IMG/VR virus record: IMGVR_UViG_3300037440_000558
Coordinates: 1-64,000 of that record
DNA: 64,000 nucleotides
Strand: one strand, 5' to 3'
Origin: a virus
Taxonomy: Duplodnaviria; Caudoviricetes
Below are positions 16,175 through 29,767 of this stretch, one piece after another; the first letter of the stretch is position 1, and every line of letters begins with the position of its first letter. Position numbers and translations under genes: made by a program. The notes under the pieces are model-generated. The model was not told where the DNA came from. It made no database searches and saw only the letters and a list, made by a program, of their open reading frames with translations.

Positions 16175-16948
16175 ATGGCACGCCTAACTCGGAGTCTCCG
16201 CCGTGGCCGCAGGTGGAACCCGGCTGACCACCCGAGGAACCTCAGAAACGGCCGGTTCGTCCGTAAAGGCACTGGCGCAGCCACTGACTGGGCCGAGCAG
16301 ATCTCTGACAAGATCGGCAGCAGCAGACCCGGACCCGAACGTAGCAGCGGTGGGCCGGACGACGTCGCCATCCGCAACGCCTACGACGCCCTGGCCCGCG
16401 GCGAGGGCGCATCGATCGATGCCCCCCAGCTTGACGAACTGCTGCACGCACTGACCGACCCCCCGCCGCAGACCAGCGCCAACCTTGCCCACCTGGATGT
16501 CGGCGGTTATGGGACCATGTTCGCTACCGACAAGGCCGACGCACTCGACCGGTCCAAGATGCCACAACTCGGCACCAGCGAAGCTGAGATGCGGCCGTTC
16601 CTGGACCTGCTCCAGTCCAAAGGTGTCCAAGTCCGGATCGCCGAACTCGACCCGACCACCCTCCGCCCATCGCAGACGGAGATCTCCGGCGCCAAAACTG
16701 GGAAGATCGCCAAATCGATGGCCAAATCTGGCTGGCTCCCCGGTGGGTTGTTAGTGACCTCCGGCGACGGGTACGTGGTCGACGGACACCACCGGTGGTC
16801 TGGTGCCGCCGCAGTCCGGGCATCCGGCGTCCGCCCGGATATGACCATCACCGGGTTGGTGGTCGACGCACCGATCGACGAGGTCCTGCAACATGCGATA
16901 TCAGTGGCGTCGTTTGAGCCGCTCGAGTTCGAACGCCCAGGGAAGTGA
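16175..16948 (+). CDS. HPR-tagged protein 1 with ParB/Srx-like domain
   Basis: TAGACT-N7-ATG; RRWNPADHPRNLRNGRF tag; LRPSQ...VVDGHHRW ParB-like motif. Confidence 0.8.
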   Translation: MARLTRSLRRGRRWNPADHPRNLRNGRFVRKGTGAATDWAEQISDKIGSSRPGPERSSGGPDDVAIRNAYDALARGEGASIDAPQLDELLHALTDPPPQTSANLAHLDVGGYGTMFATDKADALDRSKMPQLGTSEAEMRPFLDLLQSKGVQVRIAELDPTTLRPSQTEISGAKTGKIAKSMAKSGWLPGGLLVTSGDGYVVDGHHRWSGAAAVRASGVRPDMTITGLVVDAPIDEVLQHAISVASFEPLEFERPGK

Positions 16949-17175
16949 TGACAATGGTGACCAACCGCAAGTTCAGCCCGCCGGCCGGGGAACCGGTCGA
17001 CCTGAGTTCGAAGCCGCCCGGGCCGCCACCGGAACCGGGGATGGTGTGGTTCGACAAGAAACACGGCTGGCGGCGGGTGGTAGTGGACGACCCGGAAGAC
17101 CGGAAGCCACTGCCGAAACCGAAGCGGTGGGATGACCGGGTGTCGGAGAAGATGGGACGACGCAGGCGGAAGTGA
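16948..17175 (+). CDS. small Pro-rich protein with C-terminal W..RVSEK.G motif
   Basis: TGATG coupling; ends KPKRWDDRVSEKMGRRRRK. Confidence 0.6.
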   Translation: MTMVTNRKFSPPAGEPVDLSSKPPGPPPEPGMVWFDKKHGWRRVVVDDPEDRKPLPKPKRWDDRVSEKMGRRRRK

Positions 17176-17241
17176 CAGTCAGACGTTACTGGGAAGGTGA
17201 TACGCTGACGTTGATCACCTGCGAATCTTCTGGAGGAGCCC

Positions 17242-17523
17242 ATGGCAACCCCCACCCTCGGCCAGGTCGTGCACTACCAACTGGGCGACACCGACGTCAA
17301 CTTGATCATCAAACGCCGGGTCGATCTGAAAGCTGCCGGCGGCGGTGTCGTCGGCAATCCGGTCTCAGCTGGCGAACCCTACCCGGCCACCGTCGTCCAG
17401 GTGTTCGGTGACGACCCGTATGTGAACTTGCAGGTCCACCTGGATGGCTACGACACCTACTGGGCCACCTCCCGGCGAGAGGGCACCGGACCTGGCACCT
17501 GGTGTTGGCCGCCTCGGGTTTGA
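17242..17523 (+). CDS. conserved actinophage hypothetical protein
   Basis: PTLGQVVHY...PATVVQV...VNLQVHLDG...W.WPPRV motif; SD GGAGGAG. Confidence 0.75.
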   Translation: MATPTLGQVVHYQLGDTDVNLIIKRRVDLKAAGGGVVGNPVSAGEPYPATVVQVFGDDPYVNLQVHLDGYDTYWATSRREGTGPGTWCWPPRV

Positions 17524-27361: not shown

Positions 27362-28873
27362 ATGGTCAGACGGCGCCGCTGGGACCCGGCCAAACACCCC
27401 CGCGACCGGATCGGCAGATTCGCCGACCGGGTCGGCGGGGGTTGGCTGCCGGCTGTTTCCACTCAGCTCGGCGAGCGGACCGGCCATGCCACCCGGATGG
27501 GTGACCTTGATATCACTGTCCTCGACCACCCACCGGTGCCACCTGACATCTACCTGGAAGCCTACAAGAAAGTCGTCCGCAACAGCTACCTCGAATACAA
27601 ACAGGTCCCCCTGCGCACCCTGCAAACCGGAGAACTGGTGAGGGTCCGCGACCCCCAGAGCAACTTCACTGAGTGGGCATTCGTCAACGGGTGGGGCCAT
27701 TCCGGTGACGAAGTCTACGTCGACGTGGTCCTACCAGACGGCCGGTTCCTGCGGGTCCAAAGCCACACCGGCGGCAACGAGCACGTTCAGACCAAACGGA
27801 AACCGGTATATGACCCGCTGGCCCCCACCACCGGCGACCGTGCCAAGCAGATGAACCGGTGGCGCAAAGACGCCAATCGGCAAGTCCGGATATCCCACGT
27901 CCAAACCAACCGGCAGCTTAACTACCCCCGGTTCGAACGGGAGCTCCGCGAAGCCCAGGAGCATCTGGAGCGGCAACGTGGATGGCTCGAACGTGACACC
28001 GACGAAGTTGAACAACTTGCTCGTCGGTTCGGCTACCGCGGCCAACGCCGCCGTGAGTATATCGACAATGTCCTAGGGGAGAAACGGAAGGCGGTCGCAA
28101 GGGCAGAAACCGACGTCCGGCTGGCCGAGCAGGCACGCGAGTACAACCGCACCGCCAACGACCCCGCGTTGGAAGATAAACAGACCGTCGGGCATAGTCT
28201 CGACCCATCGGCCTACAACCCCAACCGGCCGTTGGCAGTCTACGGCGACATGTTGAAAATCGGCGGCGGCGACGCCGTTTACACTCATCTGGCTGAGCTG
28301 TCGGAGATCCCCGCCCCGTATCATTTGGTGGTTGCCCGGCATATGGCCGGGTGGGAATTCGGCGAGGCCGTAGTCAGCAGCAAATCGGTCGCCGGTGTAG
28401 GGTTCGATCCCAGCGACCCACCTCGGGGTTGGCATGAAGGCGCTGTCTGGGATGACGTCGATGGAGCGTACAACCCGGGGACGCGAACGTTTTATGTCGG
28501 TTACACGGACAACACCCAAGGACAAGGACTTTCGGCTGCCAAACACGAATTCGGGCACGCATTAGACGACGCCCTCGGCAGTAAGCGAACATCTGCGCAT
28601 CCACAATGGATAGAGATCTGGGAAGGAGCCGTCCACCACGCCAATGGCCTAAGCCCTTACTTCCGACAGCAGAAACCTGCCGGCCCCCAGGAGCTGTGGG
28701 CCGAAGCGTTCGACCTGTACATCTCCGAGAAAGATACCGACAGCCGGGTGGTGGCAGTAGTGGACAAACTGTTCCATGAACGGCTGGGCAGCACACGTGC
28801 CCTGGCCACCGCTCGCAGTTTGGTGGATTACTTCGACCAGATCGCGGAGGAGGTGACACAGCATGTACACTGA
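27362..28873 (+). CDS. HPR-tagged protein 5 with zincin metallopeptidase domain
   Basis: RRRRWDPAKHPRDRIGRF tag; AAKHEFGHALD...ELWAEAF. Confidence 0.8.
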   Translation: MVRRRRWDPAKHPRDRIGRFADRVGGGWLPAVSTQLGERTGHATRMGDLDITVLDHPPVPPDIYLEAYKKVVRNSYLEYKQVPLRTLQTGELVRVRDPQSNFTEWAFVNGWGHSGDEVYVDVVLPDGRFLRVQSHTGGNEHVQTKRKPVYDPLAPTTGDRAKQMNRWRKDANRQVRISHVQTNRQLNYPRFERELREAQEHLERQRGWLERDTDEVEQLARRFGYRGQRRREYIDNVLGEKRKAVARAETDVRLAEQAREYNRTANDPALEDKQTVGHSLDPSAYNPNRPLAVYGDMLKIGGGDAVYTHLAELSEIPAPYHLVVARHMAGWEFGEAVVSSKSVAGVGFDPSDPPRGWHEGAVWDDVDGAYNPGTRTFYVGYTDNTQGQGLSAAKHEFGHALDDALGSKRTSAHPQWIEIWEGAVHHANGLSPYFRQQKPAGPQELWAEAFDLYISEKDTDSRVVAVVDKLFHERLGSTRALATARSLVDYFDQIAEEVTQHVH

Positions 28874-29030
28874 TCCGATCCGCGAACCGGACGGGTCCAT
28901 CCTGGCCCCGCGGCGGGTGACCGGTGAGAACGGTGTCATCGGTGACACGATGGAACGGCTCACCCCTGACCATCCCGATTATGACCAGTGGGACCGGTAC
29001 CTGCGCGACAAGCAAACGGGTACTCGATGA
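28863..29030 (+). CDS. small protein (55 aa), possible peptidase partner
   Basis: SD GGAGG; overlaps both neighbours; VIGDTMERLTPDHPDYDQW. Confidence 0.55.
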   Translation: MYTDPIREPDGSILAPRRVTGENGVIGDTMERLTPDHPDYDQWDRYLRDKQTGTR

Positions 29031-29767
29031 GCCGGTGGGACCCGGCTGACCACCCGCGGGACCCGCGGGATGGTCGGTTCGTCGACCGGCTCAAACTAGC
29101 CGGCCGGATCGTCCTGGACCCCGGGCAACGTCTGATTGCCTCCAGTGTCAGCAAGAATTCCAGTCCCAACGATGTCGTCATGGCTGTAGTCGCCAGCCCA
29201 GACAGACCCGAGATCCGGTTGGGGGTGGTGAACCACGAAGACACCCGGAGATGGTCAGCAGCCAACCGGGGCAGCACCGCCCGCCTAGATCTGGAGGCAG
29301 CGACCCGCCTGCTCCGTGCCCTCGACGAGGCCGAAACCGCTGGGGAACAGCACCGACAGGAGTTTCGGCAGACCGCAGACCGGTTGGATGCTGAGGCAGA
29401 GAAACTGCGCCGCCGCCAAGGTTCGGCGTCGGACCAACAACTCCAGCAGATCCAGGAACGGCTGGGCCAAATCGATCTCGAATACCTGGAATCAGATCCT
29501 ATGTTGGCTGAGGGAACCGTGGAAGGTGCCGGGTGGGGTGATATCGTCTGGCAGGTGGACGGCGTGGACGACGCTGAGGGCGGTTGGGATCTGTCATTGG
29601 CGGTCCGCCCCACCAGCGTGGCAGACTGGTCCATGGATGCAGCCATAGGCAACGAACAGGAAGCTAACCTGCAGCAGTCGGACCTGCGGCGGTTCCGGCG
29701 AGCGTTGGAGACCGCGATTGCCGCAGCGGGCGGTTGGGCACAGCGGATCTCGGACCAGATAGGTTGA
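29027..29767 (+). CDS. HPR-tagged protein 6 (coiled-coil)
   Basis: MSRWDPADHPRDPRDGRF tag; ends GWAQRISDQIG. Confidence 0.75.
   Translation: MSRWDPADHPRDPRDGRFVDRLKLAGRIVLDPGQRLIASSVSKNSSPNDVVMAVVASPDRPEIRLGVVNHEDTRRWSAANRGSTARLDLEAATRLLRALDEAETAGEQHRQEFRQTADRLDAEAEKLRRRQGSASDQQLQQIQERLGQIDLEYLESDPMLAEGTVEGAGWGDIVWQVDGVDDAEGGWDLSLAVRPTSVADWSMDAAIGNEQEANLQQSDLRRFRRALETAIAAAGGWAQRISDQIG

Follow-up and report, generated by a model that had tools for sequence, protein, structure and literature searches.

A short header peptide shared by five unrelated genes around the portal gene of an uncultured phage

Introduction

In the head region of an uncultured phage, several genes begin with the same short peptide and continue with unrelated bodies. 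Which function does this peptide, here termed the header, have for the proteins that carry it? Phages are known or predicted to transport enzymes in their heads, which are injected together with the DNA in order to disarm the host. For packaging, Iyer 2017 (PMC5512222) and the 2022 NAD-ADPr survey rely only on inference, drawn either from the neighbouring genes or from fusions with MuF or portal domains. A header that occurs in at least about 1,580 protein clusters is a concrete and mutable sequence for the study of loading, cutting or delivery, and a simple marker for candidate injected effectors in metagenomes.

Results

Definition of the header and its five carriers

The window, i.e. the stretch of 64,000 nucleotides in which the genes were noticed, constitutes the beginning of the virus record IMGVR_UViG_3300037440_000558. 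The record was examined as a whole (80,560 bp, completeness estimate 90%). It stems from an uncultured phage of about 80 kb from soil or sediment. In a search of sequencing runs, the only one listed with the full sequence was a sediment metagenome, which may be its source; no RNA run was among those listed.

An earlier note on this DNA had quoted six similar N-termini, at 16175, 17801, 25212, 26618, 27362 and 29027, and all of them are present in the sequence. The header has the consensus W-x-[P/E]-x-x-H-P-R-x3-4-G-x-[F/W] and a length of about 20 residues. In a six-frame translation of the 80,560-bp record, the regular expression W.{1,3}..HPR.{3,4}G.[FW] has exactly five matches, all on the plus strand and located 3–13 residues past the start codons at 16175, 17801, 26618, 27362 and 29027; HPR alone occurs 101 times in the same translation. 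A profile built from 104 header copies assigned 24–36 bits to these five genes, and the next best of 1,479 six-frame ORFs reached 8.3 bits. The sixth N-terminus, that of the kinase-like gene 25212, was not detected by the profile and can only be aligned by means of two one-residue insertions. Its status as a header is therefore unsupported, and the set of tagged genes is reduced from six to five. As proposed, all five are located between the genes for TerL and MuF and around the portal gene. The relevant features are the following:

13120..14706, plus strand: TerL (phrog_38, E 5e-49), upstream boundary of the cargo region
16175..16948, plus strand: tagged gene 1, 257 aa (header 35.9 bits; core 16214-16258, WA-box 16289-16318)
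17801..19957, plus strand: tagged gene 2, 718 aa (header 24.4 bits; core 17834-17878, WA-box 17909-17938)
22880..24967, plus strand: portal ORF (phrog_104, E 4e-51, residues 117-624)
25212..26342, plus strand: PI3/PI4-kinase-like protein, 376 aa (Pfam PI3_PI4_kinase E 0.0011, below cut-off)
26618..27361, plus strand: tagged gene 3, 247 aa (header 35.2 bits; core 26648-26692, WA-box 26723-26755)
27362..28873, plus strand: tagged gene 4, 503 aa (header 36.2 bits; core 27380-27421, WA-box 27443-27472)
29027..29767, plus strand: tagged gene 5, 246 aa (header 32.4 bits; core 29036-29080)
29734..30783, plus strand: MuF-like minor head protein (Pfam Phage_Mu_F E 0.003, below cut-off, and PHROG head-morphogenesis families)
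30879..31775, plus strand: scaffolding protein (phrog_194, weak)
31822..32940, plus strand: major capsid protein, MCP (phrog_10, E 4e-10), downstream boundary of the head-assembly block

The tagged genes flank the portal gene on both sides, and a related phage that was found in a different sample has kept the same arrangement. The scaffolding homologue of this related phage belongs to PF06810 (Phage_scaffold). The real start of the portal ORF is probably near 23198; its first ~105 codons overlap a better-coding reverse ORF. The MuF-like protein consists of 349 aa and contains a CxxC...HPNCRC signature, as in the MuF family of A7. It ends about 80 residues past HPNCRC without an effector domain and is not matched by the header profile, which confirms that MuF lacks a toxin extension in this phage. 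The record (estimated 90% complete) yielded no prohead protease of the S78 or ClpP type, and none lies between portal and MCP.

Each module is encoded by its own ORF, with stop codons in between. Genes 26618 and 27362 share one reading frame and are separated by a lone TAG codon. A single broken ORF as the origin of genes 26618, 27362 and 29027 is compatible with this first junction only; the second gap contains five stops and a separate 55-aa gene. Small ORFs, e.g. 28863-29030 and 26329-26607, are interspersed among the tagged genes. A promoter-like GTGCGGTAGACT box is present in just two exact copies and was rejected as a general promoter of the tagged genes. Both copies belong to tagged genes and are placed for leaderless transcription, which could mean that these two genes are expressed outside the late operon.

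Synonymous codon sites differ among the five tags, which indicates conservation at the protein level and not recent copying of DNA. Beyond residue 55, the bodies display no mutual similarity (all comparisons below 3 bits). As had been claimed, the tag is thus genuine and portable, and the bodies to which it is attached are not related to one another. An AF2 model of the 16175 protein shows pLDDT values below 50 at residues 1-12 and 22-59, a mean of about 54 at residues 11-20, which comprise the core block, and values above 90 in the body. Both AF2 models that were calculated show a disordered header. In these genes, the header thus opens the module within a disordered stretch; a Gly/Ser-rich linker comes next, and then a folded body that differs from gene to gene.

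The modules behind the header

In gene 16175, the header is followed by a ParB/Srx-like body that contains a DGHHRW motif. This body is homologous (E 1e-10 to 1e-24) to internal modules in at least 25 multi-header giant proteins. The top fold matches of the modelled body are all Noc, ParB or sulfiredoxin, with a probability of 0.96–0.97 and an E-value of only ~0.04. Gene 17801 has a WREEHHPR variant of the header that lacks the Pro. Its protein, which alone among the five may hold more than one domain, comprises a putative ART/PARP-like domain at about residues 210-375 plus further domains. In an Atlas structure search, residues 213-373 matched two clusters, one PARP catalytic (TM by row 0.73) and the other ART-PolyVal, and Pfam and PDB sequence searches with this protein gave no match. 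The ART-like assignment is therefore taken as a lead only.

The body of gene 26618 is strongly acidic in composition (D+E 26%); another acidic body with the same tag is found in P0008. Gene 27362 encodes a lethal-factor-like zinc metallopeptidase with an HEFGH motif (Pfam ATLF E 5e-9, above cut-off; phrog_4415 peptidase). By sequence, its body is of the MPTase type of polyvalent proteins. The body of gene 29027 is helical or coiled-coil, and its WA-box has moved to the extreme C-terminus (29735-29764). Its homologue P0006 is part of a related phage with the same gene order. For the untagged kinase-like protein 25212, the catalytic-loop motif DRHGHN matches that of P0007, a related PI3/PI4-type kinase from a different contig, which does possess a canonical header.

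Distribution of the header

A search with the header profile yielded at least ~1,580 protein clusters, headed by giant proteins with up to 20 copies. The header is widespread, with thousands of phage proteins in which it stands before putative injected effector modules, and apparently undescribed. Pfam, PHROGs and PDB sequence searches returned no model or chain for it. Literature searches for the motif gave unrelated acronyms only, and those for packaging signals with MuF gave nothing on the peptide, although it may have been described elsewhere. The occurrences are predominantly viral. Among hits of a DNA pattern, true headers made up 105 of 115 in viral contigs versus 11 of 120 in prokaryote genomes, and the enrichment in viral versus cellular DNA is ~100-fold. 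The matches in PLSDB are actinomycete replicons of 42–145 kb; the one that was inspected is a Streptomyces phage-plasmid, in which the portal is directly followed by a 4,453-aa protein, and it gives no indication of a conjugative context.

In viral contigs, the header is located at the N-termini of genes that adjoin portal or MuF; alternatively, it comes straight after one of these two domains. The 115 distinct occurrences in IMG/VR include 65 N-terminal and 43 internal ones, and 18 of the latter follow a MuF (9) or a portal (9) domain at a distance of at most 340 aa. Among the 78 nearest same-strand neighbours of stand-alone tagged ORFs are portal (15), MuF or minor capsid (10), S78 protease (3) and TerL (2) genes. 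Homologues of the tag are thus strongly tied to portal, MuF, protease and terminase genes. The same association is seen in cultured viruses: gp67 of Gordonia phage GodonK is tagged and directly follows the portal, and the tagged gp13 of the archaeal virus HHTV-1 lies between TerL and MuF. Searching cultured phages by tblastn with tags of 25–45 aa was insensitive, and its matches to 'RepA' of cluster-F mycobacteriophages (E = 9) are due to chance, as their frame differs from that of the annotated gene.

Modules behind headers in viral contigs include ART, Zeta-kinase, Nudix and ParB; the bodies identified downstream of headers were ART (12), Zeta toxin (5), Nudix, PI3/PI4 kinase, PBECR1, HipA and ParB, and multi-header proteins contain ART-PolyVal, InPase and Zeta domains. 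What had to be given up is the notion of a special invention that is uncoupled from MuF, since the header also occurs directly after MuF or portal domains and repeatedly within giant proteins. In other phages, it stands 11–58 residues past the MuF HxxCRC motif, before the variable part. On the other hand, a MuF domain was recognisable in only 5 (by HMM) to 11 (by CRC signature) of the 150 top-ranking multi-header proteins, which argues against MuF as an obligatory partner in cis.

Discussion

Possible function of the header

The header precedes polyvalent-type modules in one genome after another. Judged by their sequences, the five genes are therefore free-standing, i.e. unlinked, modules of the phage polyvalent protein toolkit, each of which has kept its module header. 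The tagged bodies match a repertoire that is known or predicted to be packaged and injected. We consider a head-loading or docking label the best reading of the header and assign it a probability of about 0.5. The five modules (ParB/Srx-like, ART, acidic, lethal-factor-like metallopeptidase and helical) are inserted around the portal gene. In other phages, the header starts every effector module, be it a separate gene, a fusion to portal or MuF, or one of up to 20 units of a giant protein. As a short linear motif in a disordered stretch, it most likely serves as a docking label for a conserved component of the assembling head; the portal vertex together with MuF, or else the inside of the capsid shell, may be the reader. 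A labelled module would be enclosed in the procapsid and would leave with the DNA at infection. The motif, its position at the start of modules, its ties to the head module and to portal and MuF, its enrichment in viruses and its disorder are observed; we infer packaging, the identity of the reader and any cleavage. In an AF2 model, docking of the header on MuF in cis was not seen; the header had pLDDT values below 50 and the alignment comprised only 10 sequences. Moreover, loading cannot be the sole function, because the header is also present in covalent fusions with portal or MuF and is reiterated within single polypeptides. In concatenated forms, it may additionally mark cut points between modules.

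Could cutting be the only function? The header would then be what a protease recognises in order to divide polyvalent proteins into units, the candidate being the lethal-factor-like MPTase (here gene 27362), which was proposed as the polyvalent-protein processor by Iyer 2017. Such a peptidase is encoded by this phage and is weakly matched in the multi-header protein P0013. Headers occupy every module boundary, with a median spacing of ~270 aa in multi-header proteins, and the single TAG between the in-frame genes 26618 and 27362 gives them the look of a split polyprotein. Furthermore, positions -3 to -1 of the header show an excess of small residues and of D/E. However, none of the residues directly N-terminal of the core is strongly conserved, and an 'LTAA'-like cut-site motif that was noticed by eye upstream of the header in some families turned out not to be general; there is only a weak enrichment of A/K at -2 and of D/E at -1. 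Seven near-invariant residues over 14 positions are far more than a typical cleavage site requires, and the record lacks a detectable S78/ClpP-type prohead protease at an estimated completeness of 90%. In stand-alone genes, the header would have to be a leftover of fission or direct the removal of a short leader. The five proteins nevertheless keep it under protein-level selection with nothing to separate, and a mere inter-module cut site would not explain a motif with only 3–13 residues ahead of it. We therefore regard processing as the only role as unlikely.

The window offers a natural case of unusual clarity. Every module is a single gene, MuF is free of cargo and a prohead protease is not detectable, which means that the header must act on stand-alone proteins. 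Another possibility is a signal that acts in the newly infected cell, for example by binding a conserved host or phage factor or by effecting localisation, activation or timed degradation of the effector, and that has no role in head assembly. After separation, each module would need its own copy, which fits the reiteration, and the viruses with this motif, among them an archaeal one, infect widely differing hosts. In contrast, the header is acidic to neutral in its general consensus (D/E at -1, +1, +2 and +8 to +10), which speaks against generic DNA binding, and we know of no host factor common to bacteria and archaea that binds the header peptide. The non-core identity of header copies is 0.32–0.37 within one genome or protein versus 0.17–0.22 across genomes; this pattern agrees better with a reader that is encoded by the phage and co-evolves with the header than with a target common to all hosts. 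A purely post-injection signal thus appears quite improbable.

A last possibility concerns DNA instead of the peptide. The header might have been kept mainly as a recombination joint for the shuffling of modules and have little function as a peptide. Modules are in fact gained and lost as header-plus-body units, and in P0165, of the MuF family of A7, a ParB_N module has entered precisely where the MuF end meets the header, and the short 'SKA' junction is duplicated. Yet the DNA of the five copies is conserved no further than the amino acids require, and the residues W, H, P, R, G and F, which are invariant in the ~1,580 clusters, indicate selection on the peptide. It is hence very hard to maintain that the header is merely a cassette boundary.

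The docking label can be put in a more general form, which we offer tentatively and deem rather doubtful. Among the tailed viruses of bacteria and archaea, the header might be a portable and near-universal address peptide, read by a conserved feature of the portal/MuF vertex or of the inside of the HK97-fold shell. Any bearer, a single protein or several modules in a row, would then enter the head and reach the host cell together with the DNA.

Comparison with known systems

The closest known system is the polyvalent proteins, whose repertoire was predicted to be head-packaged and whose MPTase was linked to lethal factor (Iyer 2017, PMC5512222). The same domains (ART, lethal-factor-like MPTase, ParB-like, kinases) and the same neighbourhood of late structural genes are found here, and members of the repertoire lie among the virion genes between TerL and MCP, with the ART-like domain as a lead only. 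In contrast, every module of this phage is a separate gene. A large polypeptide with at least two unrelated effector domains was not found, and the genes are solo versions and not strict members. A text search of the paper revealed no mention of a shared header peptide. The MuF polymorphic toxins (Jamet et al. 2017, PMC5576092) resemble the present system in the association of variable effectors with the MuF head protein, but here MuF ends without a C-terminal effector, and each effector has a gene of its own. Nothing on a header, conserved motif or linker was found by text search of that paper.

The T4 internal proteins and Alt, as well as P1 DarB, likewise travel in the head and are injected, and here too a short peptide at the N-terminus precedes otherwise unrelated proteins. 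Its sufficiency for the loading of a foreign protein has been shown only in T4 and P1, whose signals have no sequence similarity to the header. Removal of the T4 capsid targeting sequence requires the prohead protease, the S78/ClpP-type of which was not detected in this record. For P1 DarB, the first 30 residues suffice to load a reporter (PMC9024508), which proves N-terminal capsid targeting in principle. The DarB N-terminus has no HPR header and was thus rejected as a homologue. Whereas the T4 and P1 signals are phage-specific, the header is common to the ~1,580 or more clusters and also occurs internally. Encapsulin cargo-loading peptides are short, disordered and usually C-terminal, and dock cargo enzymes inside an HK97-fold shell. 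They are a possible mechanistic analogue, although their consensus differs from that of the header. If the header were indeed a universal address, it would be the phage counterpart of these peptides and a general handle for loading chosen proteins into heads.

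The header and its carriers

The earlier note had described six head-region genes with a common N-terminal tag, here called the header, which reads W-x-[P/E]-x-x-H-P-R-x3-4-G-x-[F/W] and precedes varied effector bodies. In the six reading frames of the whole record, a regular expression for the tag gave exactly five matches; the bare tripeptide HPR occurs 101 times. All five headers start 3–13 residues past plausible start codons, in the reading frame that shows the coding GC3 signal. With a profile made from 104 motif copies, they scored 36.2, 35.9, 35.2, 32.4 and 24.4 bits; among the remaining six-frame ORFs of the genome, the highest score was 8.3 bits. 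Of the five, the weakest is the copy at 17801, which reads WREEHHPR and lacks the Pro. Pattern and profile thus confirm five of the six genes. The proposed variant in the kinase gene at 25212 was not recovered: its N-terminus has no match to the profile, and alignment to the header takes two insertions. P0007, a distant kinase of the same type sharing the DRHGxN catalytic loop, bears a canonical header.

Genes of the head region (position, strand, description)
12483-13148, +, TerS-like
13120-14706, +, TerL; several small genes follow
start 16175, +, tagged gene 1; body is a ParB/Srx-like module (AF2 fold matches, DGHHRW motif); three small genes follow
start 17801, +, tagged gene 2; body with an ART/PARP-like domain at residues ~213-373, a lead from the Atlas structural search only
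20229-23103, -, reverse-strand block between tagged gene 2 and portal
22880-24967, +, portal ORF; real start probably near 23198
start 25212, +, PI3/PI4-kinase-like, weak (Pfam E 0.0011, below cut-off)
26329-26607, 92-aa ORF between kinase gene and tagged gene 3
start 26618, +, tagged gene 3; body is an acidic protein (26% D+E)
start 27362, +, tagged gene 4; body is a lethal-factor-like zinc peptidase (Pfam ATLF, E 5e-9, HEFGH)
28863-29030, 55-aa ORF between tagged genes 4 and 5
start 29027, +, tagged gene 5; body is a helical protein without family assignment
start 29734, +, MuF-like
start 30879, +, scaffold
start 31822, +, major capsid protein; tail genes are next

At synonymous positions, the five DNA copies of the header differ, so that selection acts on the peptide itself. 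The spacer between HPR and G is four residues long in four of the five local copies, against three in the general consensus, and the Arg run preceding the motif is a local trait of this phage. Another box, W-[AL]-x-x-[ILV]-S-x(3-4)-G, is specific to the lineage and lies 8–11 residues past the header in four of the proteins; in the fifth, it makes up the final ten residues, just ahead of the MuF gene. The tagged proteins hold five of the six occurrences of this box in the genome. It is also present in P0008 and P0006, two proteins from other contigs.

Positions of the second box
16289-16318, +
17909-17938, +
26723-26755, +
27443-27472, +
29735-29764, +

The bodies behind the header are unrelated, as had been claimed; no mutual similarity was found among the five. 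The body of 16175 is well folded in the AF2 model (pLDDT above 90). Its top fold matches are all Noc, ParB or sulfiredoxin, with probabilities of 0.96–0.97 but E-values of only ~0.04. At least 25 giant proteins with repeated headers hold internal modules homologous to this body (E 1e-10 to 1e-24). The lethal-factor family, to which the peptidase of tagged gene 4 is assigned, is also the one that Iyer et al. (PMC5512222) linked with the "MPTase" of polyvalent proteins.

Tagged genes 3 and 4 are in one frame, separated by a single TAG codon that is followed at once by ATG (27359-27364). Read-through or loss of this codon would yield a two-module protein with an internal header, and the junction resembles a recent split, or a site at which fusion would be easy. 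Within tagged gene 3, a near-consensus sigma-70-type promoter (TTGACA, 17 nt, GATAAT) at 26766-26794 precedes the acidic part. The promoter count in the region is not much above expectation (5 versus 2.2 in shuffled sequence).

Gene order in the head module

The virus record is a single contig of 80,560 bp with a GC content of 64%, linear according to IMG/VR and ~90% complete by the CheckV estimate; the window covers its first 64 kb. Among public sequencing runs, one sediment metagenome is the only holder of the full DNA. Its portal shares only ~32% identity with the portals of Streptomyces phages (Yara and KimJongPhill, for example); we therefore take this to be an uncultured phage, probably with an actinomycete host. 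The relative Yara has an uninterrupted series of terminase, portal, a MuF-sized gene, scaffold and capsid. We therefore place the tagged genes in accessory insertions flanking the portal on both sides. The layout is repeated in a closer relative from another sample (L248, L249), including the 55-aa ORF, the reverse block and a scaffold with PF06810. Four of the five tagged genes have homologues in this related phage; the counterpart of gene 3 is known from position and length alone.

The reverse block breaks the + strand head module. Its 205-aa ORF matches phrog_240 "head protein", and its 731-aa ORF has no Pfam or PHROG match. In the related phage, the block encodes products of 93, 790 and 205 aa, with PF23148 (Gp77) and a weak PF23140 (Gp80). 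In the portal ORF, the initial ~105 codons (22880-23198) do not look coding, there is overlap with the reverse ORF 22486-23103, and the PHROG portal match begins at residue 117; the start is therefore probably near 23198. The 55-aa ORF, also conserved in the related phage, shares an ATGA overlap with the start of the next gene. Together with the 92-aa ORF, it could encode a partner or immunity-like protein of the adjoining effectors.

Distribution of the header

A degenerate DNA pattern representing only the Pro-variant of the motif was found at at least 120 loci in IMG/VR, nearly all in long ORFs. Among the matches listed, there were 115 distinct occurrences, 65 within 80 codons of an upstream stop and 43 internal. 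Pfam searches of up to 340 residues upstream of these 43 internal copies detected MuF in nine cases and portal families in nine; Nudix domains and 2H phosphoesterases likewise occur there. Downstream bodies among the matches listed include ADP-ribosyltransferases (12), Zeta toxin kinases (5), Nudix, PI3/PI4 kinase, PBECR1, HipA and ParB. The 78 nearest same-strand neighbours of stand-alone tagged ORFs in this set comprise 15 portals, 10 MuF or minor capsid proteins, 3 S78 proteases and 2 terminases; these families thus supply ~38% of the neighbours, against a share of a few per cent in a phage genome.

Among 1.84 billion representative proteins, 1,580 clusters match the header profile (E <= 0.001). 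At the top are giant proteins in which as many as 20 stretches match, such as P0010 (7,334 aa), P0012 (16 stretches) and P0011 (9 stretches). The best 150 proteins contain a median of three copies at a spacing of ~270 residues, and in half of them a copy lies no more than 60 residues from the N-terminus. In its majority form, the motif reads A-A-[DE]-W-D-E-x-L-H-P-R-D-x-x-G-R-F-x-x-x-G-G. Since the Pro position is Glu in 73% of copies, the DNA pattern caught only about a quarter of the family. The multi-header proteins bear ART-PolyVal, InPase, Zeta and DRAT domains, which identifies them as phage-type polyvalent proteins (Iyer et al., PMC5512222).

For comparison, the same DNA pattern was applied to one genome per species of 185,579 prokaryotic species. 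True headers, called with a profile from different sequences, were 11 of the 120 prokaryotic matches listed, all from actinomycetes, and 105 of the 115 in viral contigs. On the assumption of the same density of chance matches in both collections, viral DNA is ~100 times richer in true headers. The synteny recurs among cultured viruses: Gordonia phage GodonK bears a header on gp67, directly after the portal; Streptomyces phage Gilgamesh has a match in gp48, and the archaeal virus HHTV-1 bears a header on gp13, between TerL and MuF. The one PLSDB match inspected, the Streptomyces zaomyceticus "plasmid" NZ_CP107934.1 (L250), is a 125-kb circular phage-plasmid in which the gene after the portal encodes a 4,453-aa "UvrD-helicase domain" protein with a header at 14001-14087. 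The annotated start falls inside the header, so that the protein of the record is without the first part of the motif.

In the alignment of MuF-header-body proteins (A7), member P0165 contains a ParB_N module exactly between the MuF end and the header (columns ~370-480), and a short "SKA" junction is repeated on either side. P0165 exemplifies the gain of a module at this boundary. A few IMG/VR copies lie at the extreme C-terminus of an ORF, ending in ...GRF(R/K)KK and a stop (L022 13239, L108 1540), whereas the header normally comes first; these may be frameshifted or truncated genes.

Proposed role of the header

In the AF2 model of 16175, pLDDT is below 50 over residues 1–12 and 22–59 and averages ~54 over the core block (11–20). 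In that of a MuF-header-body fusion, it is below 50 over residues 281–395, which include the header. By these models, the header is a short conserved island in disordered sequence. Its seven near-invariant residues, with an aromatic anchor at either end, fit a docking motif better than a protease site, and the acidic to neutral general consensus argues against plain DNA binding. Outside the core, copies are more alike within one genome or protein (identity 0.32–0.37) than between genomes (0.17–0.22), which fits a co-evolving reader encoded by the phage; common descent of the copies would give the same pattern.

We propose that the header acts as a label that would recruit modules into the procapsid and that, in concatenated forms, could also be recognised for cutting. 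Packaging, reader and cleavage are all inferred here, and we assign this reading a probability of about one half. It is favoured by the head-module synteny, by the fusions to portal and MuF, and by the retention of the motif on stand-alone genes with almost no leader. Several observations weaken it. The header is present where covalent fusion already secures incorporation, and it is repeated inside single chains. The AF2 model of the MuF-header-body fusion gave no sign of header docking on MuF in cis, and only 5–11 of the best 150 multi-header proteins contain a MuF signature. An S78 or ClpP-type prohead protease was not detected in this phage, and no prohead protease lies between the portal and capsid genes; a T4-like "load then clip" mechanism could therefore work only with the tagged metallopeptidase or with some enzyme that escaped recognition. 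Furthermore, GTGCGGTAGACT occurs in two exact copies (16156-16167 and 17782-17793) ending 7 nt upstream of the ATGs at 16175 and 17801; the remaining tagged genes have GGTAG-like remnants only. The TAGACT within GTGCGGTAGACT could be the -10 hexamer of leaderless transcripts, which would make expression apart from the late operon possible.

The header is real on five head-module genes. The earlier interpretation as a virion-cargo tag is reasonable as a hypothesis but too narrow. Modules of phage polyvalent proteins generally carry this tag as their header, and in this phage it stands on fully unlinked modules. With such a header, the loading of injected effectors into heads and their processing become open to direct tests.

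Comparison with known systems

Even proteins with 7–9 copies of the header give no Pfam-A match to it, and it is in no PDB chain. A text search found no mention of it in the descriptions of polyvalent proteins (Iyer et al. 2017, PMC5512222) and of MuF toxins (Jamet et al. 2017, PMC5576092). The passages on MuF, polyvalent proteins and packaging in a 2022 NAD-ADPr survey deduce packaging of solo effectors from neighbourhood or fusion and name no signal peptide. The class of polyvalent proteins was already known; within the openly accessible literature searched, the header on its modules appears to be undescribed.
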